Shown here: positions 6,895 to 63,105 of the stretch, one piece after another
Layout of the letters: each line of letters begins with the position of its first letter
How positions within the stretch are numbered: position 1 is the stretch's first letter
DNA from: an uncultured candidate division Zixibacteria bacterium
GTDB lineage: Bacteria; Zixibacteria; MSB-5A5; RBG-16-43-9
Assembly (NCBI GenBank): GCA_963713865.1
Contig: OY970208.1
Location: 32,001 to 96,000, forward strand
Direction of reading: 5' to 3'
Length of the DNA stretch: 64,000 bases
The notes under the pieces: model-generated
The model's database searches: none
Told to the model about the DNA's origin: nothing
What the model saw: only the letters and a program-made list of their open reading frames with translations
Translations under genes and position numbers: made by a program

Positions 6895-7082
6895 GTAGCC
6901 GCAGGTATGAACTACATGGTTCATACCGCAGACTTTAGTCTGCTCTTTTGTTGGAGTGCCTTAATCGTGTTAATTCTGAATATTGCTACATTCAAGATGC
7001 ACTCCAAATAATTTCCTTAAGATGGACAGAACACTGTTCTGTACCTACAAAATCCTCGTCGGGTATAAAACCCAACGCTACT
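6895..7082. repeat. REP cluster (GTAGCCGCAG.., GGACAGAACACTGTTCTGT.CCTAC, CGTCGGG..CCCAACGCTAC)
   Basis: Each family recurs elsewhere (12660, 14555, 24730, 14470). Confidence 0.85.
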
Positions 7083-14379: not shown

Positions 14380-14612
14380 TCCCCTCTCCTTCAGGAGATG
14401 GTCAGGTTGAAAATCCCGCCATAGGCGGGGGTGAGGTCAATTTGTAGCGTCCATCTGGACGAAAAAAAACGTTTGGGATAAACCCAGACGCTACATTTTT
14501 GCGACTCTTAAAGAGTCTGGCTGGAGCAGGAGTTCAACTCCTGCTCCAAGATGTGGACAGAACACTGTTCTGTCCCTACAAATATTCTTGCGACCTTAAA
14601 AGGTCGCACTAC
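14380..14612. repeat. Mosaic of at least five palindrome families
   Basis: CCCTCTCC-type, GTAGCGTC-type, GGAGCAGGAGTTCAACTCCTGCTCC, GGACAGAACACTGTTCTGTCCCTAC, TGCGACCTTAAAAGGTCGCACTAC. Confidence 0.85.
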
Positions 14613-19346: not shown

Positions 19347-19640
19347 CAAAAAAATAAAAAAACTGTAGGAACAGAATCCGCCTGAGGTGGATTCTGTCCT
19401 TACTCTTTTTTGCGACCCTGTTCTACGGTGGTTACGAGCCCGCCCGAAGGGCACCAGACGTAGTCTCCGTTATTAGGAAAAGGGCCCGCACTACGATTTA
19501 ATCAGATTCGATTTAATGAACCCAACTCTTTTTTATCGAACAGCCAATAGCTAACCGCGAATCGCGAACCAACAAACCCCTTGTATTTTCAGCCATCTGA
19601 AGTTAAATTGATTTGATTTATTTTTATTTTGAGGTAATTA

Positions 19641-22254: not shown

Positions 22255-23631
22255 TTATTTTTTCACTGCTGCATCAAAGAGTTGAGCCAGTTTTGAAGTT
22301 AAATATTTTCTCTCATACTTTTTCAGTTTTTCTGGATCCGCTTTCAAAAACTGTTTCCCGCTCTCAGATTCCCTATAGTAATTCATTATTATCTCCTCTA
22401 TTCCTGAAATATTTTCCGGTGAAACGACTTTGCCGGCTGAAAGTGTCTCAATCAGCCTGCCTGCTTCTCCATTTTGGGGGACAATTCCCAGGATTGGTAT
22501 CTGAGCTCCTAAATATTCAAATATTTTACCTGTGGTTATCACCGGAGCAGATTCTGCAACACTCAGCAGGGCCAGATCTGATTTAAGTAATTCCACAATA
22601 CCTTCTTTATGAGGCAGATATCCCCTTAATTCCACGATTTCTTTTAATCCATATTCCTCTATTAATCTTTCTATGTTTATCCCTATGGAGATCCCGACAT
22701 CGATAAATTTAATTTTATCTTTATTGAGTCTCCCCTGTTGCAAAAGATTATGCAATGCCTTAAAAAAAGGCTCAGGTGGACAATCAGGGCTGAACGTGCC
22801 GAAATAGATTATCCTGAAAATGATTTTTTCTTTTTCGACTTTTATTTCAAAATCCTTTTGGTCATAGCCGTTGGGGATGAGCTCAATTTTTGGGATTCGG
22901 GGATAGAGGTCTTTAATCTCGGCTGTTATCATCTGATTTACCCCAACCAGTGCATCTGCGTTTTTCGAGAATATCTTTTGCAGATATTTTAAAAGAAACT
23001 TTTTGGAAAAGGGAACACCTTTTCTATTCTCAGTGGCTGAATAGGAGTCACGGTAATCTGCCACCCACTTAATCCGGGTGATTTTTTTCAGGAGTAAACC
23101 TACCAGATGACAGGTTAAAGGAGGAGAGGTGGAGAAAATAAGGTCAATCTTCTCCTTTCTGCAAAGCTTGATTCCATTTATCAGTGCAAAAGGTGACCAG
23201 TCAACTTTATTATCTGGGAAATAGAAAATATCAATAAATTTTAGCAAGCTCGAAGGAAAAAATTTAAATTTTTTCCTTTTTGAATTTCGTAGTTCGACCC
23301 TGCCTGTCCCGCCGCAGGCGGGATCAGGGTCGATTGTTTTTTTCCCGTAACTCTTTTTTCTTTGGAACAATTTTTTGAAAAGAAATATCATTCTTAAGGG
23401 ATCAAGTGAGCCTGTCCTTTTAATCTTTATTTCTTCAGGTAGTTCTTTCAAAAGCGAATCATCCTGGCTGAAATATTGAATATCTTTAACCGTTAGAACA
23501 ATTGGCTCCCAGCCAAAGGATGGAAGATATTTAACGAATTTAGAGACCCTCTGCACCCCTCCCATACCCAAGGGCGGGAAATAGTAAGCAATTATCAGAA
23601 CCTTTTTATTCTGGTCGTTAGTTATATTCAT
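22255..23631 (-). CDS. Glycosyltransferase family 4, containing an in-frame palindromic insertion
   Basis: IAYYFPPLGMGGVQR, STSPP, IPNGYD, GKIFEYLGA. Confidence 0.88.
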   Translation of the reverse strand: MNITNDQNKKVLIIAYYFPPLGMGGVQRVSKFVKYLPSFGWEPIVLTVKDIQYFSQDDSLLKELPEEIKIKRTGSLDPLRMIFLFKKLFQRKKSYGKKTIDPDPACGGTGRVELRNSKRKKFKFFPSSLLKFIDIFYFPDNKVDWSPFALINGIKLCRKEKIDLIFSTSPPLTCHLVGLLLKKITRIKWVADYRDSYSATENRKGVPFSKKFLLKYLQKIFSKNADALVGVNQMITAEIKDLYPRIPKIELIPNGYDQKDFEIKVEKEKIIFRIIYFGTFSPDCPPEPFFKALHNLLQQGRLNKDKIKFIDVGISIGINIERLIEEYGLKEIVELRGYLPHKEGIVELLKSDLALLSVAESAPVITTGKIFEYLGAQIPILGIVPQNGEAGRLIETLSAGKVVSPENISGIEEIIMNYYRESESGKQFLKADPEKLKKYERKYLTSKLAQLFDAAVKK

Positions 23632-32189: not shown

Positions 32190-33716
32190 CTACGAAAGAA
32201 TCAAATTTTCCCCATCCATCTCCGCAGGTTTTTCTATCCCCATCAGATACAAAATCGTGGGAGCTACATCTGCTAATATCCCTTTTTCTCTCAATTTTCC
32301 TTTGAAATCATTTCTCACCAGTATAAAGGGAACCAAATTTGTAGTATGAGCGGTAAAAGGCTCTCCATTGCTATAATCCACCATCATCTCCGCATTACCG
32401 TGGTCTGAGGTAACCATTGCTATACCATCCACTTTTTGTACTGCCTCAACAACTCTTCCCACACAGGTATCCACTGCCTCTATTGCCTTTATAGCCGCCT
32501 CTAAGAATCCGGTATGCCCTACCATATCCGGATTTGCATAATTCAAAAGTATAAAATCATATTTTTTTGAATCAATCTCCTGAACAACTTTATCCGTCAC
32601 CTCATAAGCACTCATTTCCGGTTTTAAATCATAAGTTGGAACTTTGGGTGAATGAATCAAAATCCTATCCTCCCCTTCAAAAGGTTTCTCCTCGCCTCCA
32701 TTGAAGAAGAAAGTAACGTGAGCATATTTCTCAGTCTCCGCAATGCGTAATTGCCTCAAACCTTTTCGGGACAAAACCTCGGGCAGAATATTTTTGAGCT
32801 TAACTGGTGGAAAAGCCACATGAACTTTGAGCTTTTCATCATACTGAGTCAACGTTACCAGATAAATGGATAAATTACTTCTTTTATCAAATTCTTTGAA
32901 ATCTTTTTCAGTTAGAACATAGGAAAGTTGTCTGGCTCTATCCGCTCTGAAGTTAAAAAATATTCCCACATCATTCTCTTTTATCCTGCCTGAAAGAGGA
33001 TTAGGATCATAAGATACTACAATTGGCTTTATGAACTCATCCGTTACTCCTTCCTTATAAGACTCCTCTATTGCCTTAACCGGATCAGAGGTCAGCTTCC
33101 CTTCACCACAAACCATAGCCCGAAATGCTTTTTCTATTCTTTCCCATCTATTATCCCGGTCCATTGCATAATATCTTCCCACTATAGTCGAAAGTGTACC
33201 AATTCCAAACTTCTGAAATTTTACCAAAAGCTCCCTGATATATTCTTTCCCAGCAAAAGGAGAGGTATCCCTCCCGTCCATAAAAGCATGCAGGTAAACT
33301 TTTTCTACTCCCTTCTCCCTGGCTAACTTTAAAAGAGCATAAAGATGATTCAAAGAGCTGTGCACTCCCCCATCTGAGACCAAGCCCATCAGGTGCAAAG
33401 AGGAATTATTATCCCTGACCTTATTCATTGCCTCTAACAGAACTTTATTTTCAAAAAAAGAACCTTCCTTTATTGCTTTGTCAATTCTGGTAATCTCCTG
33501 ATATACTACTCTGCCCGCACCGAAATTCAGATGCCCCACCTCGCTGTTCCCCATCTGCCCTTCTGGAAGACCAACGTCCAGACCTGAGGCACCTAAAACT
33601 GTATTTGGATAGCTAACAAAGAGCCGGTCTAAATTTGGTTTTTTTGCCAGAGCAATGGCATTCCCCTCTTTTTTGTTATTTAAACCGTAGCCATCCATTA
33701 TCAGAAGCAGAATCAT
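32190..33716 (-). CDS. gpmI: 2,3-bisphosphoglycerate-independent phosphoglycerate mutase
   Basis: MDGYG, GQMGNSEVGH, GRYYAMDRD, ETEKYAHVT, DMVGHTG, SDHGNAE. Confidence 0.97.
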   Translation of the reverse strand: MILLLIMDGYGLNNKKEGNAIALAKKPNLDRLFVSYPNTVLGASGLDVGLPEGQMGNSEVGHLNFGAGRVVYQEITRIDKAIKEGSFFENKVLLEAMNKVRDNNSSLHLMGLVSDGGVHSSLNHLYALLKLAREKGVEKVYLHAFMDGRDTSPFAGKEYIRELLVKFQKFGIGTLSTIVGRYYAMDRDNRWERIEKAFRAMVCGEGKLTSDPVKAIEESYKEGVTDEFIKPIVVSYDPNPLSGRIKENDVGIFFNFRADRARQLSYVLTEKDFKEFDKRSNLSIYLVTLTQYDEKLKVHVAFPPVKLKNILPEVLSRKGLRQLRIAETEKYAHVTFFFNGGEEKPFEGEDRILIHSPKVPTYDLKPEMSAYEVTDKVVQEIDSKKYDFILLNYANPDMVGHTGFLEAAIKAIEAVDTCVGRVVEAVQKVDGIAMVTSDHGNAEMMVDYSNGEPFTAHTTNLVPFILVRNDFKGKLREKGILADVAPTILYLMGIEKPAEMDGENLILS

Positions 33717-34769
33717 CTTTTCACCTTTTCAAGATTAGTTAATATTACATCTCTTTCCCCCGAAACAACCTTGCCAATCTCAAAAACTTTCTCTCTACTC
33801 CTTTGTAATTCTTTTTTAATCTTTTTTATATTATTTTTAGACACAACCAGAATAAGACCAATCCCCATATTGAAAACCCTGAACATCTCTATATTTTCTA
33901 TATTCCCTAATCTCTGAATGAAATTAAAAATCGGAAGAATTCTCCAGGACGAAGCATCTATCCTTGCCTGGCAGCCTTCTGGCAATATTCTGATTAGATT
34001 ACCTGGAATCCCTCCACCGGTTATATGAGCCATCCCCTTGATTTGGTACTTCTCTAAGACCTTGAAAATTGGTCTGGCATAAGAACGATGAACTTTGAGA
34101 AGCTCTTCTCCAATTGTATTCTTTAATTCTTTCACATAATCAGCAATTCCGTATTTTCCGATTTCAAATATAATTTTGCGGGCCAATGAATAACCGTTAG
34201 TATGCAGACCATTTGAACCCAGAACCTAAAATTAAATCTCCATGAACAATTTTTGAACCATCGATTATTTTCCCCCTCTCCACTATTCCTACAATACAGC
34301 CAGCCAGATCATACTCTTCTGGTTTATAGAAATCTGGCATCTCTGCGGTCTCCCCACCGATAAGAGAGCAGTTATTTTTTTTACATCCCCGAACCAGCCC
34401 TTTGACTATTTCTTCTATAATTGACGGAGAAAGTTTACCAGTTGCGATATAGTCTAAAAAAAATAACGGTTTAGCATTATGAACCAGAATATCATTGACA
34501 CAGTGATTTACTAAGTCTTCTCCAACAGAATCATTCTTTCCCATCTTGAAAGCGATTTTTAATTTAGTCCCAACTCCATCTACACTTGACACTAAGACCG
34601 GGTCTTTATATCCCTTCTGAGGAAAAGCATAAAATCCACCAAAACTACCTATATCAGTCAAGACATTTTTACTAAAGGTTGAGCGAACTAAGTTTTTAAT
34701 TTTTTTCTTAGCCAAATCAGCCTTATCAATGTCCACCCCTGATGTTTTATAATCAATTTTCTTTTCCAT
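33713..34769 (-). CDS. purM: Phosphoribosylformylglycinamidine cyclo-ligase, one extra T at ~34223
   Basis: DGVGTK, GGETAEMP, AHITGGG, FNMGIG; removing one T restores GLGSNGLHTNGYSLARK. Confidence 0.93.
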
Positions 34770-34797
34770 ATTTTCTAAATCCTCATCTCAACAAATT

Positions 34798-34912
34798 CCC
34801 TCTCCCCTTGTGGGAGAGGGTTAGGGAGAGGGGAATAAAAATGATATCACCTCCCCCTCCTCTACGAGCCGTTCCGCCAGTGGCGGATTATCGGCTATCA
34901 AGGGAGAGGATA
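34798..34912. repeat. CCCTCTCCC...GGGAGAGGG palindrome family
   Basis: Also at ~14381, ~56718, ~62832-62897. Confidence 0.8.
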
Positions 34913-34928
34913 TAGACGTTCATCCAAT

Positions 34929-35588
34929 TTAGAGCAACCTCTGTCCATTGATTTCTAATTCAAACCTCATTTTAAGATATTCTGCTGCCCGTCTGCAAAC
35001 CACCATACGGGACAAGAAGATCTCAAAATATTCCATTACCTGGGAAACAGAGGTGTCGATTTTTATCTCTAAGGAGATAGTCTTCTTCTCTTCATCTACT
35101 CGTAAAAAAGAGCTTTTAGCCGCATAATTCACCCGGTCATGAATGTCCTGCTTTATCATCTCAAGGTTTCTAACCCTGGAGCTGTGCACATCCGATTTGT
35201 CAGCTAAAATAATTGACGCACAGATATCACTTACCGGCTGACCATCCCTTTCATCATGATTCCCAATCGCGGCTACCACCTCTATAACATCAGAATAAGG
35301 CACTCCCATATCTAAAAGTATCTGATAAGCTAAAAGGGCACCGGTTTGGGCATGATAATCCCGGTTAATCACATTCCCGATATCGTGCAGATAGGCGGCT
35401 ATAGCGGCTAAATGAGCTTCTTTTTCAGGCTTTTTCAAGCGAATCATAATATTATAAGCGATATTGGCGGATAAACTGGCATGCCTTGAACCATGCTCCG
35501 TATAGCCAATCTCCCCCAGGAACTTATCCGCTTTGGCAATCAGAGTTTTAACTTTCTCGTTCTGCTTGAGGTCTTCTATGGTTATCAT
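34929..35588 (-). CDS. HD-domain phosphohydrolase
   Basis: GYTEH, LHDIGN, GNHDE, ILADKSDV. Confidence 0.85.
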   Translation of the reverse strand: MITIEDLKQNEKVKTLIAKADKFLGEIGYTEHGSRHASLSANIAYNIMIRLKKPEKEAHLAAIAAYLHDIGNVINRDYHAQTGALLAYQILLDMGVPYSDVIEVVAAIGNHDERDGQPVSDICASIILADKSDVHSSRVRNLEMIKQDIHDRVNYAAKSSFLRVDEEKKTISLEIKIDTSVSQVMEYFEIFLSRMVVCRRAAEYLKMRFELEINGQRLL

Positions 35589-35781
35589 AATATCTACTCC
35601 TTAAAGTTTCTAACTTAACCAGATGTAAAATTTTTGTCAAGGGTAAATCACATTATTCTCTTCCTCTCAATAAGTCGCGTAACCGTCCCACCGTCTGGCG
35701 GGATTAGGGCTCGGAAGCAGAGGCCTAATCCGCCCGAGGCGGACTGCTACGCGTGCTTGATAATACGGTTTAGCTGCATAA

Positions 35782-38259
35782 TTACATTATCTCTAAAGGG
35801 TCTATATCAATAGAAATTTTCACTCCAGAATAATTCTTATCAAATCCTTTATCCAGAATCAAATCGATTTTCTGAGTAACCACTCTAACATTTCTGGTTT
35901 TTATCAAAATCTGAAAACGGTAATCATCTTTAATCTTAGCAAGAGGTGCAGGTGCAGGTCCCAAAATCTCAAACTTTAACCTGCAGCCTTTAGACTTTAG
36001 ACTGTCCGATAACTCACTCCCAAAAAACTCAGCTACCTTTTGGACTTTATTCTCCTCTTTCCCCTGAACCCGGATTAAAATCAACCTGCTGAAAGGAGGA
36101 TAGAGAAGTTCTTCTCTTTCTTTTATCTCCCTTTTATAAAAATCAAGATAATTCTGCCCAGCCGAAAGTTTAATGGTCCAATCCTCAGGATAATAAGTTT
36201 GAAAGACAACTTCACCCCCTAATTTTCCTCTCCCAGCTCTTCCCGCCACCTGAGTCAGAAGCTGAAAAGTTCTTTCTCTGGCTCTGAAATCTGGAAAATC
36301 TAAAGAAGTATCTGCTGATATCACTCCCACCAAAGTCACATCTGGAAAATCAAGCCCCTTGGTCACCATCTGAGTGCCTAAAAGAAGACTAAAATCCTTG
36401 GAAGCAAAACTCTTAAGGATCTCCCGGTGGGAATCTTTTCTATGAGTTGTATCTTGATCCATCCTGCGTATAGCAACTGTTGGAAAAAGTTTATTAATCT
36501 CCTCCTCGATTCTCTGAGTCCCCACACCTTTATAGGCAAGCCTGCTCCCTTTACATTCAGGACAGAGTGAACTTGCCTGGATTTTATAGTTGCAATAATG
36601 ACAGCGTAAAGAGAAATCGATGCGGTGAAAGTTTAAGGTTATATCGCAGTGCGGGCAGTGATAGATATAACCGCACTCCTCGCACTTGACGAAATTTGAG
36701 AATCCTCTCCGGTTTAAGAACAGGATAACCTGCTCTCCTTTTTCTATCTTTCTTTTCATCTGAGAGGAAAGCTCAGAAGAAAATATAGTGTAGTTCCCTT
36801 TTTTCCTCTCCTCTTTTAGATCCAGAATCTTCACCGGGGGAAGAGGTTTTTGATCTACCCTCTGACTCAACTGCAGAAGAGTATACTTACCTATTTTAGC
36901 ATTATAGAAGCTTTCTAAACTCGGGGTGGCTGAGCCAAGCACAACCAGAGCTTTATTCATCTTTCCTCTAACTAAAGCCAAATCACGGGCATTATACTTG
37001 GGATCTGGCTCTTTCTGCTTGTAGGAAAAATCCTGCTCCTCATCCACTACGATTACCCCTAAATTCGAAAGTGGTGAGAAAATAGCTGACCTGGTCCCAA
37101 CTACCACTTTTATCTTACCGCTTTTAACCCCTCTCCAGGCATCAAATCTTTCCCCCGGAGATAAGCTGGAATGATACGAGCCCACACTTTCCCCAAAAAC
37201 AGATTTGAAGCGGAAGATAATCTGAGGGGTCAAGGAGATCTCCGGAACTAAAACCAGAGCGGTTTTCCCTTTATCTAAACCTTTTTTTATAATCTCTATG
37301 TAGATTTGCGTTTTCCCGCTACCGGTTACTCCATACAGTAGAAAAGGATGATATTTCTCCTCATTAAAAGACTCCTCTAATTTTTCTACTACCTCTCTTT
37401 GTTCCTGATTTAGAGAAAATTCCTGGTTAAAATCTACATCCATCCCCCACTGAGGTTCTCTCAATTGTTCCCGGTATAAAGATTTAATCAATCCCTTCTT
37501 TTCCAACCGATCCAGAATCCGGGATGCTCCCTTTATCTTTTGGCTCAGTTCACTTAAAGATATTTCCCTGTTCTCTTTCATCAAAAATTCAAGAAAAAAA
37601 GCATCTCCTGGTGATTTCTTCTTGATGGTTTTGATATAGGTCTCAATAAGACTTTTTTCTTCACCAGGATCTTCTTTTAAGGAAACCATCTTCTCATATT
37701 TTGTGCTAACTCTTGGCCTGCTCAGCTCATAATAGAACTGCACTTTTCCTCTTTTCTCTAAAGAATGAAGAGCAGAATATATCCCTTTTAAGCCTACTTT
37801 TCTCTCTAAAGAAGTTAAATTCTGAGGACTTTTACTAACAAGGGCATTCAGGAGTTTTTTCTCTTTTAGAGAGAGTTTAATCTTCTCAGCTTCAGATGTT
37901 AAGAGAGGAATCTCCTTTTTGGAAATCCAGAGAAGATTTCTAACCTGCAGTTCTGAAGGTAATGCGGCTCTAAGACACTCACCCCAGGAAGCAAAATAAT
38001 ACTCTGAGGTCCATCTGGTAAGCTCCAAAATCTCCTGGTTAATTATTGGCTCTTCATCTATTAAGTCTATGATTTCCTTCGTATTTTTTACCTTTGAACT
38101 TGGGACAACATTAACCACAAACCCTAATTTCCTCTCCCTTCCGAAAGGAACTAAAACCCTTTGACCGGGATTGATTTTCTCTTTTAAATTTCCCGGAATA
38201 CTATAAGTAAAAGTTTTCCTCAAAGGGAGAGGAAAAGCTATCTCAGCAAATTCGGACAT
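35782..38259 (-). CDS. priA: Primosomal protein N'
   Basis: GVTGSGKT, VPEISLTPQ, Cys-rich Zn region, RAGR. Confidence 0.96.
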   Translation of the reverse strand: MSEFAEIAFPLPLRKTFTYSIPGNLKEKINPGQRVLVPFGRERKLGFVVNVVPSSKVKNTKEIIDLIDEEPIINQEILELTRWTSEYYFASWGECLRAALPSELQVRNLLWISKKEIPLLTSEAEKIKLSLKEKKLLNALVSKSPQNLTSLERKVGLKGIYSALHSLEKRGKVQFYYELSRPRVSTKYEKMVSLKEDPGEEKSLIETYIKTIKKKSPGDAFFLEFLMKENREISLSELSQKIKGASRILDRLEKKGLIKSLYREQLREPQWGMDVDFNQEFSLNQEQREVVEKLEESFNEEKYHPFLLYGVTGSGKTQIYIEIIKKGLDKGKTALVLVPEISLTPQIIFRFKSVFGESVGSYHSSLSPGERFDAWRGVKSGKIKVVVGTRSAIFSPLSNLGVIVVDEEQDFSYKQKEPDPKYNARDLALVRGKMNKALVVLGSATPSLESFYNAKIGKYTLLQLSQRVDQKPLPPVKILDLKEERKKGNYTIFSSELSSQMKRKIEKGEQVILFLNRRGFSNFVKCEECGYIYHCPHCDITLNFHRIDFSLRCHYCNYKIQASSLCPECKGSRLAYKGVGTQRIEEEINKLFPTVAIRRMDQDTTHRKDSHREILKSFASKDFSLLLGTQMVTKGLDFPDVTLVGVISADTSLDFPDFRARERTFQLLTQVAGRAGRGKLGGEVVFQTYYPEDWTIKLSAGQNYLDFYKREIKEREELLYPPFSRLILIRVQGKEENKVQKVAEFFGSELSDSLKSKGCRLKFEILGPAPAPLAKIKDDYRFQILIKTRNVRVVTQKIDLILDKGFDKNYSGVKISIDIDPLEIM

Positions 38260-38507
38260 GGTTTATTTTTCTAAAAATGTGTTTAATCTATAAGGAAAAT
38301 TCAATTAATCTGTGTAAAAAACAAAAACTTGATTAACCCTTTTGACAGGGTCTTGAACTTTTTCAATATAAATCAAATTAAAATCTTTTGCAAATAAAAT
38401 ACAAAGGACAGAATCCGCCTCAGGCGGATTCTGTCCCTATATTTCCATGATGGCTGAACTCCCTGATATTATTAGAAAAGAAAAAACCTCAGGGTTGAAC
38501 CCTGACG

Positions 38508-39479
38508 CTATATTTCCACAAATTCTTCCCCTAAAATCGAGGCACCAATAAAACCAGCGTCATTACCCAGTTTTGCTTTTACAATCCTCAAGTTCTTGGT
38601 GGCTGATGGGAAAGCTCTATCCTTGACTTCTGCCTTTATGAGTTTAATAAAATTTCTTCCTGAGGCAATGGCTACACCACCGCCTATCACTATGACTTCC
38701 GGATTAAATAGATTCACTGTACTTGAAAGTCCAGCACCTAAGTAGTAGGCTGTTTCCTGAACGACCCTACAAGCAACTTTATCCTTTAACTTTTCAGCAA
38801 AAAATATGTCGATAGCTTTTAATCTGTTCAAATCCCTATTAACCAATTTATAGAGAATAGAGTTTCGCTTCTCTCTTAGAAGCTCTTTTGCCCTCTTGAG
38901 CATCGCAGGCTCAGAAGCATACATTTCCAAACAGCCGTAATTTCCGCAGTTGCATTTAATCCCGTGAAAACAGATGGAGATATGACCCAATTCAGGTCCG
39001 ACAAAGGATGAGCCTCGAAAAAGTTTACCATCCAGGATTATACCACTTCCGATTCCTGTTCCCAGGGTAATGCAGATGCAATTTTTGTAACCTTTAGCTG
39101 AACCGAATTTATATTCAGCCAATGCCATTACATTGGCATCGTTATCTATAAAGACAGGATATTCAAAATATTTTTGGAGATATTTTCTTAGAGCAAAATC
39201 AGCCAGAAAAGGCAGATTTGGAGGTATTCCCACAATCTTCCCTTTTATTATATCAACTGTCCCCGGAACTCCAACTCCAACACTTGATAACTTGATCTTC
39301 CTTTTTCGAGCAAATACAAGTGAGGAATCGATAACTCTTCTTAAATTACTCAAAACCCCTTTTCTATCCAAACCAGAGGATACAAATCCTTTGTTAAGAA
39401 TCCTCCCCGAGGTGGAGACTATTCCATATTTTATATTAGTCCCCCCGATATCCACTCCAATGTTAAATTTCTTTTTCAT
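38508..39479 (-). CDS. ROK family sugar kinase (glucokinase-like)
   Basis: GVDIGGT, NDAN, GTGIGSG, ELGH, CNCGNYGCLE. Confidence 0.9.
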   Translation of the reverse strand: MKKKFNIGVDIGGTNIKYGIVSTSGRILNKGFVSSGLDRKGVLSNLRRVIDSSLVFARKRKIKLSSVGVGVPGTVDIIKGKIVGIPPNLPFLADFALRKYLQKYFEYPVFIDNDANVMALAEYKFGSAKGYKNCICITLGTGIGSGIILDGKLFRGSSFVGPELGHISICFHGIKCNCGNYGCLEMYASEPAMLKRAKELLREKRNSILYKLVNRDLNRLKAIDIFFAEKLKDKVACRVVQETAYYLGAGLSSTVNLFNPEVIVIGGGVAIASGRNFIKLIKAEVKDRAFPSATKNLRIVKAKLGNDAGFIGASILGEEFVEI

Positions 39480-39627
39480 CTAATCTTTTGAACGTAGTGG
39501 TGGTCGATAAAAGCCTTACGACGGCAACGCCGGGCTTCGCTCCCCGTAGGGAGTTTATCTCCGTCCGAAGGTTAAGGGTGGAGACAAGCTCCACCCCTAC
39601 GCGATTATTTCCAAACTTGCTTAAAGA

Positions 39628-40842
39628 TCATCCTTTGATCTTATTATACTCCTCTACCCCTTTGGCTAAAATCCTCATTGCTTTTCTCAAATCCTCTACA
39701 TTTAGAACATAGGCGATCCGGGCTTCATCCTTTCCTATCCCGGGGGTGGCGTAAAACCCCGGACCAGGTGCCACCATCGTAGTAGCTCCATTCAGAGAGA
39801 AATCTGTAAGCATCCATTTAGCGAAATCCTCAACATCTTTTACCGGAAGCTTTGCCATAATGTAAAAAGCACCTGAAGGCTTCTGGCAAATCACGCCCGG
39901 AATTTTCATCAGCTCGGTATAACAGGTATCCCTTCTCCTTTTGTACTCCTCTGCCATAGCCAGGAAATAATCCTCTGGCAGTTTTAATGCACCTATAGCC
40001 CCGTATTGTTCGATGGAAGGGGAACAAAGTCTGGACTGACCTAATTTCAACGCAGTATCCATAACCTCTTTGTTTTTGCTCACCAAACAGCCAATCCGGG
40101 CACCGCAGGCACTATACCTTTTGGAAATCGAATCCAAGAGTATTGCCCTGTCCTCTATCCCTTCTATGTTCATTATGCTGGTATGAATACCTTCATAGAT
40201 GAACTCTCGGTAGACCTCATCTGAAAGCACGAAGAGGTCATATTTTTTAGCCAGCTCCACTATAGTCTCCATCTCCTCTCTGGTATAAACCGTACCCGTA
40301 GGATTATTGGGAGAAGCAAATAGAATACCTTTTGTTTTTGAAGTTATCTTTTTCTCGATTATCTTTTTGTCAGGCAAATGGAAACCAAACTCAGCTTTAG
40401 TGGGAACCGGGACTAAATTTATATCCGCCATCCGGGCTAAGCTATTATAATTGGTATAGAAAGGCTCAAATACAATAATCTCCTCTCCCACATCCGAAAT
40501 ACAGATTATGGAGAAGATTAAAGCCTCACTCCCCCCGGTAGTTATCTGGATATTCTCCGGTTTAACCAGGATATTTTTCCGACCGTAATATTCCACCATC
40601 CCCTGGATAAGTCTTAAATCCCCTTTGGAGTTACCATATTCCAGGACCTTGTTGGGATAATTCTTAACCGCATTCATAAACTCGACCGGCGTAGGGATGT
40701 CCGGCTGACCAATGTTCAGATGGTAAACCTTAACTCCCTTCTTCTTAGCCTCATCTGATAGAGGGATAAGTTTTCTTATTGGAGAAGCAGGCATCTCCTT
40801 TCCCCTTTTGGACACCTTAAGTTTTGAAAAAGACATATACAC
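39628..40842 (-). CDS. PLP-dependent class I/II aminotransferase (aspartate aminotransferase-like)
   Basis: NIGQPD, SPNNPTG, SDEVYRE, SISKRYSACGARIG. Confidence 0.9.
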   Translation of the reverse strand: MYMSFSKLKVSKRGKEMPASPIRKLIPLSDEAKKKGVKVYHLNIGQPDIPTPVEFMNAVKNYPNKVLEYGNSKGDLRLIQGMVEYYGRKNILVKPENIQITTGGSEALIFSIICISDVGEEIIVFEPFYTNYNSLARMADINLVPVPTKAEFGFHLPDKKIIEKKITSKTKGILFASPNNPTGTVYTREEMETIVELAKKYDLFVLSDEVYREFIYEGIHTSIMNIEGIEDRAILLDSISKRYSACGARIGCLVSKNKEVMDTALKLGQSRLCSPSIEQYGAIGALKLPEDYFLAMAEEYKRRRDTCYTELMKIPGVICQKPSGAFYIMAKLPVKDVEDFAKWMLTDFSLNGATTMVAPGPGFYATPGIGKDEARIAYVLNVEDLRKAMRILAKGVEEYNKIKG

Positions 40843-40891
40843 TCCTTGCTAATCTATAGAATTCCGCATAGTGCCGGAATTTTACTTTAGA

Positions 40892-40909
40892 TTGTGAATA
40901 ATTTAACAA
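40892..40909. promoter_or_regulatory. Rex-like operator overlapping the -10 box of the aminotransferase promoter
   Basis: TTGTGAATAATTTAACAA, one mismatch to TTGTGAAnnnnTTCACAA; minus-strand TTGACA-N17-TAAATT promoter overlaps it. Confidence 0.6.
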
Positions 40910-41313
40910 ACCAATTTTTATCTGTCAATCAAAAACGGATATCCCCTATCCGTCATTGCGAGTCCGCCGAAGGCGAGACTTCATCGTCCAGATTAACTCC
41001 TCACAATGACATGGCGTAGAAACGTATTGCTATTCGTCTCTATATGACAACCACTAAATGTATTCCCTATCATTTCTCGTCTGACTTCTTACGTCTTACT
41101 TCTTACTTATTCAGGTGTCAAGGAAACATCCTTCGTCGGGTCAGGGGACTCTACGACCACATTAATTTCTACGGCATCCATTTGGATGCATTCCATATCA
41201 TTTCTCGTCTCACATCTCCCGTCTCACTTCTTACTTTTTTTTCTCACCAATTTTATTGACAAAGAAAAGTAATTATATTAATATAATCGAATAAATTTTG
41301 AAGGATTATCAAT

Positions 41314-43992
41314 ATGAGCACAGGCGAATTATCAAAACAATACAATCCCAAATCAGTAGAGGACAAATGGTATTCCTACTGGATGAGAGGTAAATTTTTC
41401 TCCCCAAATCTTTCCGACCATAAATCCTTCTATAGCTTGGTTATCCCTCCTCCAAATGTTACAGATATTTTGCATCTGGGACATGCGTTGAATAATACCC
41501 TTCAGGATATCCTGATTCGCTGGAAAAGGATGCAGGGTTTTGAGACAGAATGGCTGCCGGGAATAGATCATGCCGGTATAGCCACTCAGGTAGTTATCGA
41601 GAAAAACTTAGCTAAAGAGGGCAAGACCCGCCAGCAGATCGGAAGAGAAGCTTTTTTAAAGTTAGCCTGGGAATGGAAGGATAAAAATGGTGAGGCGATT
41701 TTAAATCAACTTAAGAAAATCGGCTGTTCCTGTGATTGGGATAGAACTCGATTTACTTTAGATGAAGGATTATCGAAAGCAGTTTTGGAGGTATTCAACC
41801 ACCTCTACAAAAAAGGATTGATCTATAAAGGTAAATATATAATCAACTGGTGTCCCAGATGTTTAACCTCCATTTCAGATGATGAAACCGAAAGAGAAGA
41901 GGAAGATGGGCATCTCTGGTATATAAAATATAAATTAAAAGGAAAAGACGATTATATATCGGTTGCCACCACCAGACCTGAGACTATGTTAGGGGACACT
42001 GCGGTTGCGGTAAATCCCAAGGATAAGAGATATAAAAAATTAGTGGGCAAATTTGCTATCCTTCCTATTCTGGATAGAGAACTTCCTATAATCGCAGATG
42101 ATTTTGTTGATCCGGAATTCGGAACCGGAGCAGTTAAGGTTACTCCTGCTCATGACTTGAATGATTTCGAATTAAGTAATCGGCATAACCTTGAACGGAT
42201 TGTGGTGATTAATCCAGACGGGAAGATGAATCAGAATGCAGGCAAGTTCGCTGGAATGGACCGTTTTAAATGCCGTAAAGCCTTAGTGGCTGAACTGAAA
42301 AAGAAAAAACTCCTGGAGAAAATCGAACCCTACAAGGTTCCGTTAGGCTTATGTTATCGCTGTAATACCATAATCGAGCCTTATCTTTCCGAACAGTGGT
42401 TTGTCAAGATGAAACCTTTGGCTGAACCCGCCATCCAGGTAGTAAAAAACGGAAAAGTTAAATTTTACCCTGAGCACTGGTCCAAAGTTTATCTCAACTG
42501 GATGGAGAATATCCGGGACTGGTGTATCTCCAGGCAGCTCTGGTGGGGACACCGCATTCCGGTATGGTATTGTTTAGACTGTCAAGAGGTTATCGTGGAT
42601 AAGACACCTCCAGTGGAATGCTCCAGATGTAAAAGCAGGAATTTAAAGCAGGAGGAGGATGTCTTGGATACCTGGTTTTCATCCTGGCTCTGGCCCTTTT
42701 CCACTTTTGGCTGGCCTGAAAAAACCGAGGAGCTGAAGAGTTTTTATCCAACCAGAGCACTTTTCACCGCTTCCGAGATAATCTTCCTCTGGGTAGCCCG
42801 GATGGTGATGGCAGGACTGGAGTTTATGGGAGAGGTTCCTTTTTATGATGTCTATATTCACGGCACAGTCCGGGATGCCAATGGGGTGAAGATGAGTAAA
42901 TCCCTGGGAAACGGAATCGACCCTCTGGAGATAATTAAAGAGTATGGGGCAGATGCCTTAAGGCTCAGTACGATTTTAGTAACGCCTGAGGGACAGGACC
43001 CTTGCATCTCCTTTAACACATTTGAGATCGGCAGAAACTTTGCTAACAAGTTGTGGAACGCATTCCGCTTTATCTGGATAAACACAAAAGATCAAAAACC
43101 CAAAATAGGCAAGATATCTACCCCTGAAAAAAGTAATCTGAGATGGGAGGACAGATGGATCTTGAGCCGGTTAAATCAGACTGTAAATGAAGTCACCAAA
43201 CAGATGGAAAGCTACCGGTTTAATTCAGCCACTAAGATTTTATACGATTTTGTCTGGCATGATTTCTGCGACTGGTATTTGGAGATGATCAAAGTCATAT
43301 TTCGCCTGTCTGAAAAAGAAACGGAAAAAGTCAACTCTAAAAAAACTGCTCTTTTTTTACTGGATAATATCTTAAGGCTTCTTCATCCCTTTATCCCCTT
43401 TGTGACCGAGGAGATCTGGCAGAACCTTTATTCTCTCTCCCCGGATGATTTTAGAAACAGTTTGATCAAAGCTTCCTGGCCTAAACCTAACCCTGTTTTA
43501 GTAGATTCAGAACTGGAAAGAACGATGGACCTGGTACAGGAGGTAGTAACCTCAGTCAGAAATATCCGCTCGGAGATGAATATCCCTCCTGCAAAAAAGT
43601 TAACCGCCTATCTAAAGGTTGAGAAAAAGGAGACGCAGAAGCTCTTGGACGAGAACAGGGAACATATCCTTACCTTGGGGAGGATTGAGAAACTCGAATT
43701 GGGTTTGAAAACAAAAAAGCCCAGTTTATCCGCATCCGCTGTAGCTAAGGATTTTGAAGTCTATATACCTCTGGAAGGGTTGATTGATGTTGAACAGGAA
43801 AGAGTAAAATTGGAGAATGAGATCACCAGATTGAAAGAGCTTTTAGTAGGAGTTGACCGCAAATTAGCCAATGAGGATTTTCTTAAAAAAGCACCACCTT
43901 CTATTGTGCAAAAGGAGAAGGCCAAAAAAGAGGATTATCAGAAACTGATTGAAAAGTTAGAGAAGAACTTGGAGGGCTTAGTTGGATGGTGA
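41314..43992 (+). CDS. valS: Valine--tRNA ligase
   Basis: PPPNVT..LHLGH, DWCISRQLWWGH, KMSKS, C-terminal coiled coil. Confidence 0.97.
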   Translation: MSTGELSKQYNPKSVEDKWYSYWMRGKFFSPNLSDHKSFYSLVIPPPNVTDILHLGHALNNTLQDILIRWKRMQGFETEWLPGIDHAGIATQVVIEKNLAKEGKTRQQIGREAFLKLAWEWKDKNGEAILNQLKKIGCSCDWDRTRFTLDEGLSKAVLEVFNHLYKKGLIYKGKYIINWCPRCLTSISDDETEREEEDGHLWYIKYKLKGKDDYISVATTRPETMLGDTAVAVNPKDKRYKKLVGKFAILPILDRELPIIADDFVDPEFGTGAVKVTPAHDLNDFELSNRHNLERIVVINPDGKMNQNAGKFAGMDRFKCRKALVAELKKKKLLEKIEPYKVPLGLCYRCNTIIEPYLSEQWFVKMKPLAEPAIQVVKNGKVKFYPEHWSKVYLNWMENIRDWCISRQLWWGHRIPVWYCLDCQEVIVDKTPPVECSRCKSRNLKQEEDVLDTWFSSWLWPFSTFGWPEKTEELKSFYPTRALFTASEIIFLWVARMVMAGLEFMGEVPFYDVYIHGTVRDANGVKMSKSLGNGIDPLEIIKEYGADALRLSTILVTPEGQDPCISFNTFEIGRNFANKLWNAFRFIWINTKDQKPKIGKISTPEKSNLRWEDRWILSRLNQTVNEVTKQMESYRFNSATKILYDFVWHDFCDWYLEMIKVIFRLSEKETEKVNSKKTALFLLDNILRLLHPFIPFVTEEIWQNLYSLSPDDFRNSLIKASWPKPNPVLVDSELERTMDLVQEVVTSVRNIRSEMNIPPAKKLTAYLKVEKKETQKLLDENREHILTLGRIEKLELGLKTKKPSLSASAVAKDFEVYIPLEGLIDVEQERVKLENEITRLKELLVGVDRKLANEDFLKKAPPSIVQKEKAKKEDYQKLIEKLEKNLEGLVGW

Positions 43993-44017
43993 AAAAAATT
44001 TACAGGAGGTAAATCCA

Positions 44018-45397: not shown

Positions 45398-45432
45398 GCT
45401 TAAAAAATATTAATCTTTTAAAAGGAGTCTTT

Positions 45433-46740: not shown

Positions 46741-46775
46741 TAAAGGGTAAAAAAATAATAGAAATGATGCTTATA

Positions 46776-46809
46776 ATAGGGACGTATTACATTGCGTCCC
46801 TATTTTTTT
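46776..46809. terminator. Hairpin between convergent genes, probable terminator (REP-derived)
   Basis: ATAGGGACG...CGTCCCTAT followed by T-tract. Confidence 0.6.
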
Positions 46810-46978
46810 ATTCTTTTATCTCGGTATATCTACAGTTGAATATTGTTTTATATTTTTGACTTATTTCTAACCCTATATTCTTCTCCATATTAAAAGTCGT
46901 AGAATTCAACTCGGATTCAGCTTTTTCCTCAATTGTTTTATTTAGCTCAATTATCTGTTTTTCTCTATCCCAACTCAT
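46808..46978 (-). CDS. Small hypothetical protein, 56 aa (MSWDREKQII...YTEIKE), not in ORF track
   Basis: ATGA overlap with the upstream stop, GAGGT RBS, open frame to TAA at 46808. Confidence 0.5.
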   Translation of the reverse strand: MSWDREKQIIELNKTIEEKAESELNSTTFNMEKNIGLEISQKYKTIFNCRYTEIKE

Positions 46979-47658: not shown

Positions 47659-47943
47659 CCTCCTTTTATCTGAAGATATTTTAGCTACTTTAATTATATC
47701 GGCAGTTCCCGGCCTTTGTTCAATTACTGATTTTTAAGAAAATTAAACCCTGAGCTGAGGCTTGAAGAGATTGTTTTTCTTCGTTGATGAGGATACTTAC
47801 GAAGAATAATATACTGAGTAAACTTAGAAATTTTGAAGCTTTTTTAGAGCAAAGACCTGTGCCTGTCTTAAAGGCTCAGGCAATCGATAGTTAGTGCGGT
47901 TTGAAGTGTGACCCTTTCTGGGCGAGTTGAAAAAGTTCCCCCT

Positions 47944-48037
47944 GTCATTCTAAGGGAGTCCGCCTTTGGCGAGACGACCGAAGAATCTCTTTGGTTCGTG
48001 CGGAGATTCTTCCTCCCCTACGGGGACTCAGAATGAC
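47944..48037. repeat. GTCATTCT..GAAGAATCT / AGATTCTTC..AGAATGAC inverted doublet (CGTC/TGTC-type REP)
   Basis: Near-identical doublets at 49186..49266 and 49761..49852; related GTCATTGCGAG..GAAGCAATC at 40952 and 62551. Confidence 0.88.
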
Positions 48038-48105
48038 ATTCAGTCAATTTCGGTTTTTCAATAGTCCCTAAAGTATTGTACTACCTAAAACTATTCTTAG
48101 AACTC

Positions 48106-49023: not shown

Positions 49024-49297
49024 TTTATAGTATTTTTTGGATTGTAAACCTTTAGGTTTATAAGGATAAAGCTAAAGCTTTATCCTCTAGGACTGGTTAA
49101 CAATCTATTTTAATGGCGGTAGAACAGACAGGAATGTCTGATTACCAAGAATTCTTTTTCTCTTCAAAACCGTGTAATTACCAATGTCATTCTGAGGGAG
49201 AGTAGCGACCGAAGAATCTCTTTTGTTTATGCGGAGATTCTTCCCCCCTACGGGGGTCAGAATGACAAATGACTTGTCAATTGAATTCATCCCTGAA

Positions 49298-49723: not shown

Positions 49724-50083
49724 ATTTGACTCCCTTGCACCTAACTGTTCATCTACTACTGTCATTCTGAAGGAGTCCCCTACGGGGACGACTGAAGAAT
49801 CTACCTCAAGGTCAAATTCGATAGATTCTTCGTCCTAAGGACTCAGAATGACAGAACATTTAACCATACCCGCCAGGTCCCCTGACCTGGCAGGTTTCTC
49901 GTCGGGTCAGGGGACCCGATGAGCACATTAAGCATAAAGTAGGTCAACCATGTCCGAAGGACTGGTCGACAATTTATTTATATTATATGTCAAACAGTCT
50001 ACCCAAGGTGGACATGCTTGACCTATATAACTACTATAACTACATATTCCGGAAACGATTGTAAAGTGACAACAAACAATTAG

Positions 50084-50542: not shown

Positions 50543-50581
50543 AAATAGAAGAATGTTGAGAGCAGGAGTCAAGCTTCTTAC

Positions 50582-50989: not shown

Positions 50990-51146
50990 TATAGTATTTT
51001 TACATATAACATAGGTTTATCTATACAATTTGAATCACGACTATCTTCAAGGATAAAAACCCACTATTTATTAATTTTTAAATAATTTACCCTCCTAAGG
51101 AAGAAACCACCAACCCCTATTATAAATTACCTCTATATAACTCAAT

Positions 51147-62550: not shown

Positions 62551-63105
62551 GTCATTGCGAGTCCTACGGACGAAGCAATCCCTTTACTATTAATTTTCGT
62601 AGTGCGACCCAGCTTACCCCACAGTGGGAGGAGTTTACGTAGCGTCGGGCTTTATGCCCGACGAAGAAATTCCGTCGGGGCAGGGAACCCGACAGTCACA
62701 AGAAGTTTGTAGAATTTGTAGAGACGCATAGAATGCGTCTCTCTTTTTTCCGCGTTAGGACAGAATCCGCCTCAGGCGAGATTCTGTCCCTACAAATATC
62801 CTACCTTGTGAGCAAGGCGGATATAACGATTCCCCTCCCTTGATGGGAGGGTGAAATAATCCCCCTCTCCTTAATCCTCTCCCACAAGGGGAGAGGAAAT
62901 ATACGCAGCGTCGGGCTTTATGCCCGACGAAGAAATTCCGTCGGGTCAGGGGACCCGACGGTCACATGAGTAGTGGTCGCTTTCATAGAGACGCATAGAA
63001 TGCGTCTCTACGAGAAATAAACCCACCTTGAGAGCAAGGTGGGATTACCGTATTGGTTCGGGAAATCCAATTCCCGAACCAACGCAAGGGCAAGGCAGGA
63101 TACCG
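62551..63105. repeat. Dense BIME-like mosaic of many REP families with an internal ~266-bp-spaced duplication
   Basis: 62639..62700 is nearly identical to 62905..62966; each is followed by AGAGACGCATAGAATGCGTCTCT. Confidence 0.9.

Follow-up and report, generated by a model that had tools for sequence, protein, structure and literature searches.

The tips of short hairpin repeats in the bacterial genome G000 carry one very small sequence module that is common to otherwise unrelated repeat families. We analyzed a window of 64,000 nucleotides (nt), corresponding to bases 32001-96000 of G000, a single contig of 2.72 Mb with 40.4% G+C in which short hairpin repeats are unusually abundant. The module is a GC-rich mini-hairpin of 13-19 nt with the core motif T-C(1-4)GCC-N3-GGCG(1-4)-A. 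It takes the place of a short block, usually 5 nt, at or beside the apex of its host, and our data support block replacement without target duplication and not ordinary insertion. The module is polymorphic in place between related genomes, flips, occurs in unique hairpins and is shared across repeat families, genera and phyla, and its stems are not conserved. Repetitive extragenic palindromes (REPs), their inverted doublets (REPINs) and the hairpin repeats targeted by Ssn nucleases are usually viewed as units, changing by point mutation and transposing as whole elements. Here, a sub-module of 15 nt moves between such repeats and into unique hairpins, alters their stems and turns over within a genus. 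This extends what is known of very small nested repeat modules and of REP tip variants.

Sequence and enrichment of the module

An initial annotation of the window, all of whose coordinates hold the sequences given there, had described the module by a T-CC...GG-A frame with 3-4-nt loops. This frame proved too loose. Generic TCC-N-GGA hairpins with stems of at least 3 bp were found 69 times in the window, compared to 55.5 +/- 6.7 in 100 dinucleotide-preserving shuffles, and bare 3-bp TCC..GGA stems are at chance level. With stems of at least 5 bp, 10 hairpins were found versus 4.0 +/- 1.8 (shuffle maximum 11). The short examples TCCTAAGGA (49833), TCCGAAGGA (49953) and TCCTACGGA (62562) are individually within chance, and our recount resulted in about 13 clear copies in the window instead of the approximately 15 initially listed.

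The specific core stood out. Among G/C-only stems of at least 4 bp with 3-4-nt loops, 179 arms with ..CGCC at the loop were detected in the genome as opposed to 20 with swapped arms. These were distributed over CGCC (51), CCGCC (68), CCCGCC (45), CCCCGCC (13) and CCCCCGCC (2). Alternatives of the same composition with a C-rich 5' arm were rare (CCCGC 6, CGCCC 9 and CCCCG 3, versus 68 for CCGCC). The excess belongs to a specific sequence and not to any GC clamp. The exact pattern TCCGCCNNNGGCGGA was present 50 times in G000 and the reversed pattern not once, and the outer pair was T..A in 115 out of 280 cases. A sister type, CCCC-N3-GGGG (e.g. CCCC-GTA-GGGG), was moderately enriched (90 versus 51). 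145 of the 179 core copies lie outside open reading frames (ORFs) of at least 120 aa, although such ORFs cover 84.5% of the genome.

The loop spacing is mostly N3, and 4-nt loops, bulges and varied stem lengths also occur. A bulged variant, GGCG-A-GA, recurs in three host families. Loop types are family-specific; the GGACAGAA family, for example, exclusively has TNA loops. No strand bias relative to replication was seen for the bulged variant, the repeat heads or the loop types (p 0.24-1.0), a test that is void because the GC-skew curve yields no believable origin and terminus. The cumulative skew of G000 has its minimum at 2.705 Mb and its maximum at 1.915 Mb, which would make one arm 1.9 Mb long and the other 0.8 Mb. 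Most of the genome has negative skew, as does the window, which would fall within the 'leading' arm, and skew does not mark replichores here.

The filled REP doublet at 35674-35753

The following elements of the focal doublet were read from the sequence, the two mini-hairpins also from the paralogue listing; here and below, no strand was assigned where none is given.

35674..35753: inverted REP doublet (REPIN-like), both halves filled
35686..35703: mini-hairpin TCCCACCGTCTGGCGGGA in the doublet, in place of the 5-nt arm piece AGCCT (GTAG orientation) of the paralogues
35729..35743: mini-hairpin TCCGCCCGAGGCGGA in the second REP of the doublet

The doublet is located in the spacer between priA (35782-38259, minus strand) and an HD-domain gene (34929-35588, minus strand), both assigned by Pfam. 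Its paralogues carry a 5-nt arm piece, given here in square brackets, in the forms GTAGCCG[AGCCT]TCAGGGCTCGG and GTAGCAG[AGGT..]TTAG.CCTCTGC. In G000 this family was found empty/empty, empty/filled (two cases) and filled/filled. As single-stranded DNA (ssDNA) the doublet is predicted to fold with -24 kcal/mol (z = -4.0), and its two modules are near-identical palindromes able to pair mutually in a long REPIN hairpin.

Both mini-hairpins are present at the orthologous locus of the congener G001, where TCCCGCCGTCTGGTGGGA is the counterpart of TCCCACCGTCTGGCGGGA. The second congener, G002, is devoid of the entire doublet (approximately 119 nt, window positions 35664-35782), with flanks of 96-97% identity. 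Congeners here differ cleanly by the presence or absence of one REPIN-like unit.

Host repeats, empty and filled

Judged by eye from site listings, at least 15 distinct host contexts have the module at their apex. These comprise GTAG-tagged REPs and REPINs, GTCATT...AATC repeats, further repeat types, a terminator-like hairpin that is unique, and tRNA remnants. Strict clustering of the flanks resulted in 25 clusters with at least two members and 80 singletons. The following hosts were read from the sequence of the window.

38406..38436: GGACAGAA..TTCTGTCC REP with tip TCCGCCTCAGGCGGA at 38414-38428; perfect 12-bp ssDNA hairpin, -13.9 kcal/mol
19377..19391: mini-hairpin TCCGCCTGAGGTGGA, with one stem transition, in a GGAACAGAA REP
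62766..62781: bulged variant TCCGCCTCAGGCGAGA in a GGACAGAA REP
7024..7044: empty REP GGACAGAA[CACTG]TTCTGT; further empty copies at 14555 and 24730
47944..47990, plus strand: GTCATTCT.AGGGAG..CGACCGAAGAATCT repeat (SRM-like) with tip TCCGCCTTTGGCGAGA at 47959-47974
48014-48026: tip TCCCCTACGGGGA in the inverted partner of the preceding repeat
49186..49220, plus strand: empty member of the same family, GTCATTCTGAGGGAG[AGTAG]CGACCGAAGAATCT
49761..49797, plus strand: member of the same family with the CCCC-type tip TCCCCTACGGGGA at 49776-49788
40963..40978: TCCGCCGAAGGCGAGA at the tip of a GTCATTGCGAG repeat
34873..34887: TCCGCCAGTGGCGGA within a CTACGAGCCG..CGGCT repeat
23307..23323: TCCCGCCGCAGGCGGGA within a GACCCTG..CAGGGTC repeat
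14414..14430: TCCCGCCATAGGCGGGG within a GGTTGAAAA..GTGAGG repeat

That the same host repeats exist both empty and filled, as initially proposed, was borne out genome-wide. The GGACAGAA..TTCTGTCC REP has 109 distinct loci, 62 with the 5-nt tip CANTG and 22 with the module. The respective numbers were 7 with CAACG and 4 with the module among 12 loci of the GGGGCACGTTG..TGCCCCTAC REP, and 12 with the short tip (A)AGCCT and 5 with the module among 19 loci of the GCGAGGCTAA..CGCACTACG REP. Counts for both families of the doublet and for two further families stem from a by-eye reading of a loose listing: GTAGCCG[AGCCT]TCAGGGCTCGG had 8 empty and 2 filled copies, 12 out of 16 copies of GCCAGGTCA..TGGCAAGCAC were empty and 4 filled, and all of the approximately 13 copies of AGGCTRA[AGTCT]CAAGACCTTGA in G000 were empty.

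The commonest hosts are the repeats GTCATTGCGAG...CGAAGCAATC (63 loci) and GTCATTCTGAG...GAAGAATCT (108 loci). Of these 171 GTCATT...AATC loci, 52 have a ..CGCC tip and 42 a CCC(C) tip. They often form inverted pairs, with 59 successive pairs less than 120 nt apart. AAAGGTT(C/T)AA-like tandem arrays (G000 1435880-1435950 and 2601150-2601220) also bear the module, at sites that differ between G000 and G001.

Anatomy of the replacement

Every family with both states has arms that match exactly up to the junction, where a block of 15-17 nt replaces 5 nt, sometimes 6. Overall, the replaced length is 5 nt and rarely 6-12 nt, and target duplication is absent. The initially stated replaced length of 5-6 nt is thereby corrected to mostly exactly 5 nt. 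The replaced block differs between host types. In tight-loop hairpins it consists of the closing pair and the triloop (C-ANT-G, C-GAA-G), and in GTAG-headed REPs of the head-side arm bases adjoining the loop (AGCCT, CGTTG), which leaves the opposite arm partly unpaired. The rule that the module always replaces the loop was therefore rejected, as the 5 nt lost from GTAG-headed REPs belong to the head-side arm beside the loop.

By hand count, the first and last bases are complementary in 9-10 of the 11 consensus replaced 5-mers, which is a mere lead because several of those families are related. The base preceding the module is a purine and the following base mostly a pyrimidine. A longer target motif around the module was not found.

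Orthologous comparison within the genus and family

Replacement in place was also seen at orthologous loci. We compared G000 to its congeners G001 (743 kb, 27% of that genome, of which 640 kb aligned to G000) and G002 (15 loci); six further genomes of the same family (G003-G008) were included. The alignment of G000 and G001 contained 481 indel blocks, 242 of them of at most 60 nt, and 19 of these 242 involve a mini-hairpin. Sites were further matched by 12-nt flanks on each side with at most two substitutions per flank (substitution-only matching). Starting from G001, the host was found in the other genome for 30 out of 81 sites (13 identical, 5 with substitutions, 4 with another mini-hairpin, 8 with none). 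In the opposite direction, from G000, it was found for 34 out of 259 sites (14 identical, 6 with substitutions, 4 with another mini-hairpin, 10 with none); the G000 sites lacking a host match mostly fall into uncompared parts of G001. Both directions, which overlap, sum up to 27 identical sites, 11 with substitutions, 8 with another mini-hairpin and 18 with none, and some of the last are mutated copies.

The clean empty states are 5 nt long: AGGCT, AGTCT, AAGTT and ATCTT. Where G000 has TCCCGCCAACGGCGGGA between GAGCCCTGA and CGGCTACGCG (CCCTGA[..]CGGCTAC), G001 has AGGCT. An GGACAGAA-type REP and a GTCATTGCGAG-type repeat are filled in G001 and unfilled in G000. Several tips are swapped between the ..CGCC and CCCC types, one tip changed from CCCC-TTAC-GGGG to CCCCGCCGTGGCGGGG, and at one site G000 has a second module in tandem relative to G001. 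G002 carries TCCGCCTCTGGCGGA between GCAAGGCTAA and CAAGACC, where G000 and G001 both have AGTCT. At another locus the tip between TTGCCAGGTCAG and TGGCAAGCAC is TCCGCCTTAGGCGGA in G002, GGGGGACC in G001 and the near-identical AGGGGGGACC in G000. One GTAGGGGCA...TGCCCCTAC REP site has three different interiors in the three genomes. A GTAGCCG locus is filled with TCCGCCTTTGGCGGA in G006, which belongs to another genus, filled with a longer stem and another loop in G000, and empty in G001; its states mean that changes run both ways or recur.

In orthologous copies of equal length, a small sample that includes a few intragenic sites, the difference amounted to 7.0% in stems (24 of 344 positions) and 6.6% in loops (6 of 91). 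Changes in the stems were single-sided and mostly transitions. Stems thus show no sign of selection, and changes are not compensatory, as in neutral decay. Hence, the abundance of the module must be sustained by new copies.

Unique hairpins and tRNA remnants

As proposed initially, unrelated host families share the module, and it extends to hairpins that are not repeats. A terminator-like hairpin, AAAAAAGGCAG[..]CTGCCTTTTTT, occurs only once in G000 and has three different tips in the three congeners: TCCCGCCAAAGGCGGA in G000, GCTCCCGTAGGGGA in G001 and TCCGCCTTTGGCGAGA in G002. The tip in G002 is the reverse complement of that in G000 with one difference, that is, it was flipped in place.

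Besides UvrC, G000 encodes eight small GIY-YIG proteins. Five of the eight genes come shortly after a tRNA gene and have partial tRNA copies behind them, and at three GIY-YIG loci the ensuing tRNA remnants bear T-CC..GG-A hairpins. Compared to the intact neighbors, TCCGCCTGCGGCGGA replaces the D-loop piece CAGGCTG in a tRNA-Met-like copy, which has TTCGCCAAGGCGAA in its variable region; TCCCGCCGCTGGCGGGA replaces GCAGCTGCCTGC in a tRNA-Ser remnant; and TCCATCTGGA replaces the anticodon arm in a tRNA-Gly remnant. The same states were found in G001, the tRNA-Ser of G002 is uninterrupted, and G003 has another hairpin at the same D-loop position. The unique terminator-like hairpin and the tRNA remnants are sites without a paralogous donor. 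Because changes occur in place, in unrelated hosts and in non-repeat hairpins, the filled forms are not one ancestral subfamily per host, the pattern that the initial annotation had named as contradicting its proposal.

The GIY-YIG loci have further features. Downstream of an intact tRNA-Met gene, a unit of 344 nt is present in three tandem copies (G000 330723-331789), each consisting of a 94-aa GIY-YIG ORF and a tRNA-Met-like copy with two extra hairpins; related arrangements are found in G001 and G003. Small GIY-YIG genes lie directly 3' of tRNA-Ser(GCT), tRNA-Gly(TCC) and tRNA-Ala(TGC), followed by partial tRNA copies (G000 2706374-2706756, 2133349-2133728 and 1312542-1312914, respectively). 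As the tRNA-Ser of G002 is uninterrupted, the GIY-YIG gene looks like a tRNA-targeting mobile element. Among 20 GIY-YIG loci from other genera, aragorn identified 11 tRNA genes in 9 loci, 7 of the 11 being tRNA-Ser. The idea that GIY-YIG genes are always followed by the module was discarded, since none of the 14 readable loci out of these 20 had a ..CGCC mini-hairpin beside the gene.

Distribution and gene content

The exact 15-mer pattern was found 50, 71 and 154 times in the three congeners, the highest number belonging to G002, an incomplete assembly of 1.6 Mb. Other genera of the family have 4 to 103 copies, resulting in a range of 4 to 154 within the family. In 201 genomes of the phylum, all of one class, 0-213 copies were detected, with at least one copy in 167 genomes and 0-5 matches for the reversed control. 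Four distant genomes rich in copies have the module in different hosts.

A scan for CATTGCGAG-N0-6-CCGCCNNNGGCGG with one genome per species, which pre-selected the tip and therefore indicates breadth and not frequency, yielded at least 122 stretches, placing the same tip in GTCATTGCGAG repeats across many phyla. Phyla among the matches listed were Chloroflexota, Omnitrophota, Bacteroidota, Planctomycetota, WOR-3, Patescibacteria, Proteobacteria and others, together with one archaeal metagenome-assembled genome (MAG). The GTCATTGCGAG...CGAAGCAATC repeats themselves, often as inverted pairs or arrays, are present in MAGs of many bacterial phyla and in one Bathyarchaeia-labelled contig among the matches listed. 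Contigs of Chloroflexus have up to five copies within 700 nt.

Of the gene families initially suggested as candidates for tracking the motif, HUH (RAYT) and GIY-YIG genes were compared. G000 has eight PF01797 (Y1/HUH) matches above the cut-off; these RAYT-like genes have HUH-like motifs, and each is flanked by its own REPs. PF01797 was present in 31 out of 31 relatives with 2-12 matches each and had no relation to the motif count; G005 has 5 matches and 4 motifs, G002 has 3 matches and 154 motifs. GIY-YIG matches correlated weakly with the motif count across the 201 related genomes, which as kin are not independent (Spearman 0.27). Motif-free genomes (34) had 2.6 matches on average and genomes with at least 30 copies (18) had 4.6, and 13 of the 34 motif-free genomes had at least 3 matches. 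Neither RAYT nor GIY-YIG gene counts strictly track the motif.

Relation to known systems

The initial statement that no mechanism has been described for such replacements was too strong. Known systems of ssDNA hairpins include or resemble the hosts, namely REP/RAYT and, in the available text of PMC11893778, SRM/Ssn, and very small nested modules are reported from Nostocaceae (see below). Many hosts are GTAG-headed hairpins of 20-40 nt, often in inverted doublets, and whole doublets are present or absent between congeners, as in REP/REPIN-RAYT systems. Repeats such as GTAGGGACAGAA..TTCTGTCC (109 loci) and GTAGGGGCA..TGCCCCTAC conform to the definition of REPs, being short, GC-rich, imperfect palindromes with a GTAG end, in high copy number and extragenic, and Y1/HUH genes flanked by their own REPs, which define RAYTs, accompany them in G000. 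The mini-hairpin itself is not a REP; it has T..A flanks only and no GTAG head, and none of the RAYT genes is flanked by the bare module. In contrast to a REP, it is common to families of different RAYT genes and sits inside the REP, whose stem it partly destroys.

The GTCATT...AATC hosts resemble SRMs in the way they appear to work, which is an analogy and not a claim of membership. Ssn proteins are single-domain GIY-YIG nucleases, which are specific for ssDNA and act site-specifically at the NTS/SRM hairpin repeats flanking their genes (Chenal et al. 2025, PMC11893778, as far as its text is available). The repeats GTCATTGCGAG..CGAAGCAATC and GTCATTCTGAG..GAAGAATCT share the GTCATT head, the hairpin and the AATC tail with the NTS (CGTCATTCCCGCGMAVGCGGGAATCYRG) given there. 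One of the eight small GIY-YIG genes, a 103-aa ORF (G000 321436-321744), has GTCATT..AATC (GTCATTCTGAG) repeats on both sides as oriented hairpins, with GTC in the head and a C behind the palindrome, as is characteristic of SRMs. However, the hosts described here differ from NTS/SRM by an additional internal loop (GAG/CGAAG) and by an apical hairpin that varies, and exchangeable tips are not described for SRMs in the available part of PMC11893778. The published SRM string HGTCWYN(0-2)YYVSBRHN(0-5)WNVSBRGN(0-2)RNCYNB matched none of the 171 GTCATT elements and had 4 matches in the genome compared to 8 in the reversed genome. NCBIfam gave only sub-threshold matches for five small GIY-YIG proteins.

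REP sub-families with alternative stems and loops are known, in which loop ends of complementary GC, GGC/GCC or GRCG/CGYC coexist in one family (Di Nocera et al. 2013, PMC3733652). In the available text of that study these are handled as family variants and not as one module across unrelated families, and orthologous gain or loss is not shown.

Quasipalindrome template-switch mutation and flip-flop inversion of hairpin loops are hairpin-guided replication errors that alter several bases at once without duplication. They could account for a module being erased from a REP arm and for the flip in place between G000 and G002. Unlike the process considered here, they bring imperfect palindromes closer to perfection from local sequence and do not import a foreign 15-nt block.

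The closest published analogue of the module probably is found in the small dispersed repeats (SDRs) of Nostocaceae. SDR4-6 are reportedly very small modules of approximately 21-27 nt that are nested in other repeats. [quoted passage not shown] The module itself is nested in other repeats and is present or absent between related genomes. It differs from SDRs in being a plain GC palindrome of 13-19 nt that replaces approximately 5 nt of a hairpin tip instead of inserting into a palindrome, and in its occurrence outside cyanobacteria, in one type of host across many phyla. The available text of PMC5861425 reports no SDR-like repeat outside Nostocaceae.

Other categories did not apply. The module is no miniature inverted-repeat transposable element or IS200-IS605-type element, as it is a single hairpin of 13-19 nt without duplication, with 5 nt of target lost and a weak purine|...|pyrimidine tendency of the flanks. 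It is not an intrinsic terminator, as few copies have a T run (e.g. G000:951118 and 2653477) and most lie inside longer repeats without one. Nor is it a HIP1-like iterated palindrome, as it arrives in blocks of 15-17 nt and is mainly found outside long ORFs. A search of the window against Rfam (E<=1) resulted merely in two weak unrelated matches, and no Rfam family fits the module. In a literature search with most subscription journals outside reach, none of the papers listed dealt with a single mini-hairpin common to tips in unrelated repeat families. Searching for the strings CATTGCGAG and CGAAGCAATC returned only primers among the matches listed.

Possible origin of the module

We tentatively favor, with a probability of roughly 45%, a portable apex module that is copied from tip to tip on extruded single strands, where nucleases might start the event and no enzyme of its own would be required. 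The TCC...GGA hairpins would then be copies of one very small portable module, the CCCC-GTA-GGGG type would behave alike, and both would occupy the permissive apex of DNA hairpins. Entry would occur by block replacement of a minimal tip, usually of 5 nt and usually the closing pair plus three bases, without target duplication. Subsequently, the module would be copied along as the host repeat multiplies, and it would flip in place, be exchanged or erased between copies and decay neutrally. Writing presumably takes place on extruded single-stranded hairpins during replication or repair. It may proceed by strand transfer or template switch from hairpin tip to hairpin tip without a dedicated enzyme, and it is possibly started by hairpin nucleases encoded in the genome. 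The commonest homes are GTCATT...AATC repeats resembling Ssn GIY-YIG targets and the GTAG-tagged REPs and REPINs of RAYT transposases. RAYT and Ssn proteins are thought to read the foot of the hairpin, and therefore the tip would be left free.

Several points weigh against tip-to-tip copying. None of its steps was observed, and single-strandedness is deduced from the nature of the hosts only. No microhomology across families was found at the junctions, and the constant module ends together with the constant 5-nt replacement look more like the work of a fixed-geometry enzyme than of free template switching. Within multi-copy families, conversion from a paralogue explains the in-place changes equally well, in either direction. 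The comparison covers 27% of G001 and 15 loci of G002. Two of the 'clean' empty/filled cases sit in AAAGGTT-type low-complexity arrays, and one (G000:1991580) is of doubtful orthology. The pattern at the GTAGCCG locus described above needs either a precise loss in G001 or parallel gains.

The constancy of ends and of the 5-nt replaced length across unrelated hosts is the main argument for a dedicated enzyme. The module would then be a minimal non-autonomous mobile element with defined ends (T...A), cut in by a host ssDNA-hairpin nuclease or transposase. Candidates would be a RAYT-like HUH protein, of which there are eight, or a small GIY-YIG nuclease, making two cuts 5 nt apart in the target tip. 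The burst-like copy number points in the same direction, as do the eight REP-flanked Y1/HUH genes and eight small GIY-YIG genes in the genome, the GIY-YIG gene with GTCATTCTGAG repeats on both sides and the three other GIY-YIG loci followed by tRNA remnants with T-CC..GG-A hairpins. Moreover, Ssn proteins are proven site-specific ssDNA nucleases at hairpin repeats, although they cut a few nt upstream of the repeat and not at the tip (both from the available text of PMC11893778). We consider this explanation rather unlikely, given that PF01797 is present in all 31 relatives regardless of motif count, GIY-YIG genes correlate weakly with the motif and give at least 3 matches in 13 of the 34 motif-free genomes, and an adjoining ..CGCC mini-hairpin is absent from all 14 GIY-YIG loci that could be read in other genera. 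The dedicated process or templated writing invoked in the initial annotation was not demonstrated. Changes run in both directions or in parallel. In its boldest form, bacteria would possess a structure-guided 'tip-for-tip' rewriting on ssDNA hairpins. A minimal tip of closing pair and triloop would be cut out and a standard GC mini-hairpin written in, with a RAYT or small GIY-YIG protein as catalyst. The process would operate in many phyla, with any extruded hairpin as its substrate (REPs, Ssn-type repeats, terminators and tRNA remnants), and would represent a new class of the smallest known mobile DNA; we regard this generalization as unlikely.

It may also be that nothing moves between families, and that old tip subfamilies, homologous conversion only and convergent selection for a fast-folding clamp with a C-rich 5' arm have produced the pattern. 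The REP families with alternative stems, loops and complementary GC loop termini in the available text of PMC3733652 are in line with this. So are the family-specific loop types such as the TNA loops of the GGACAGAA family, the orthologous changes that run both ways or in parallel, and, for the gain in G002, the existence of a related donor whose left flank matches over 7-8 nt. This is clearly unlikely in view of stems that change as much as loops (7.0% versus 6.6%) and single-sidedly, of one stem dominating isoenergetic ones (179 versus 20 swapped; CCGCC 68 versus CCCGC 6), of the same bulged variant in three families, and of differing tips in the unique hairpin and tRNA remnants, which have no paralogous donor. 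Very unlikely is a functional site under selection, such as a protein-binding, methylation, transcript-end or stabilizer hairpin with an abundance like that of HIP1 iterated palindromes. Strong enrichment outside genes, a spacing mostly fixed at N3 and two copies forming the tip of terminator-like hairpins followed by T runs would suit such a role. However, the module arrives in blocks of 15-17 nt and not by point substitution, its stems are not under purifying selection and vary in length, bulges and 4-nt loops occur, copy numbers range from 0 to 213 among related genomes, and no Rfam family matches. Subfamily inheritance with convergence and a selected functional site both fit the data less well than a portable module or a dedicated nuclease.

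The module is frequent, easily scored and widespread. If writing is enzymatic, the module would be the smallest mobile DNA known outside cyanobacteria and an instance of natural ssDNA-hairpin editing. If it results from template switching, the module would provide a strong and easily scored reporter by which hairpin extrusion and copy-choice could be followed in vivo. The module can mislead repeat classification and searches for Ssn or RAYT targets, since the foot that the protein reads evolves independently of the free tip.

Metagenome assemblies and a neighboring gene

The module also breaks metagenome assemblies at its sites. Contigs from four public metagenome runs covering the region 34000-51000 break at repeats, with loose ends clustering at 34798/34833 and 49185/49220, and yielded no readable polymorphism between filled and empty states. 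At the repeat copies in window positions 34798-34833 and 49185-49220, contigs stop or diverge and the summed depth is very high. These repeats are common to many organisms or loci in those samples and break the assemblies. The best-matching public DNA runs share at most 0.43 of sampled words with this genome, and RNA runs were absent from the matches listed. One metagenome contig spans 34927-35787 without a gap.

In the window, the N- and C-terminal domains of an AIR-synthase-related protein (Pfam) lie in the adjacent minus-strand ORFs 34197-34769 and 33713-34186, respectively. This gene (33713-34769) may be frameshifted or split, or its stop may be read through.

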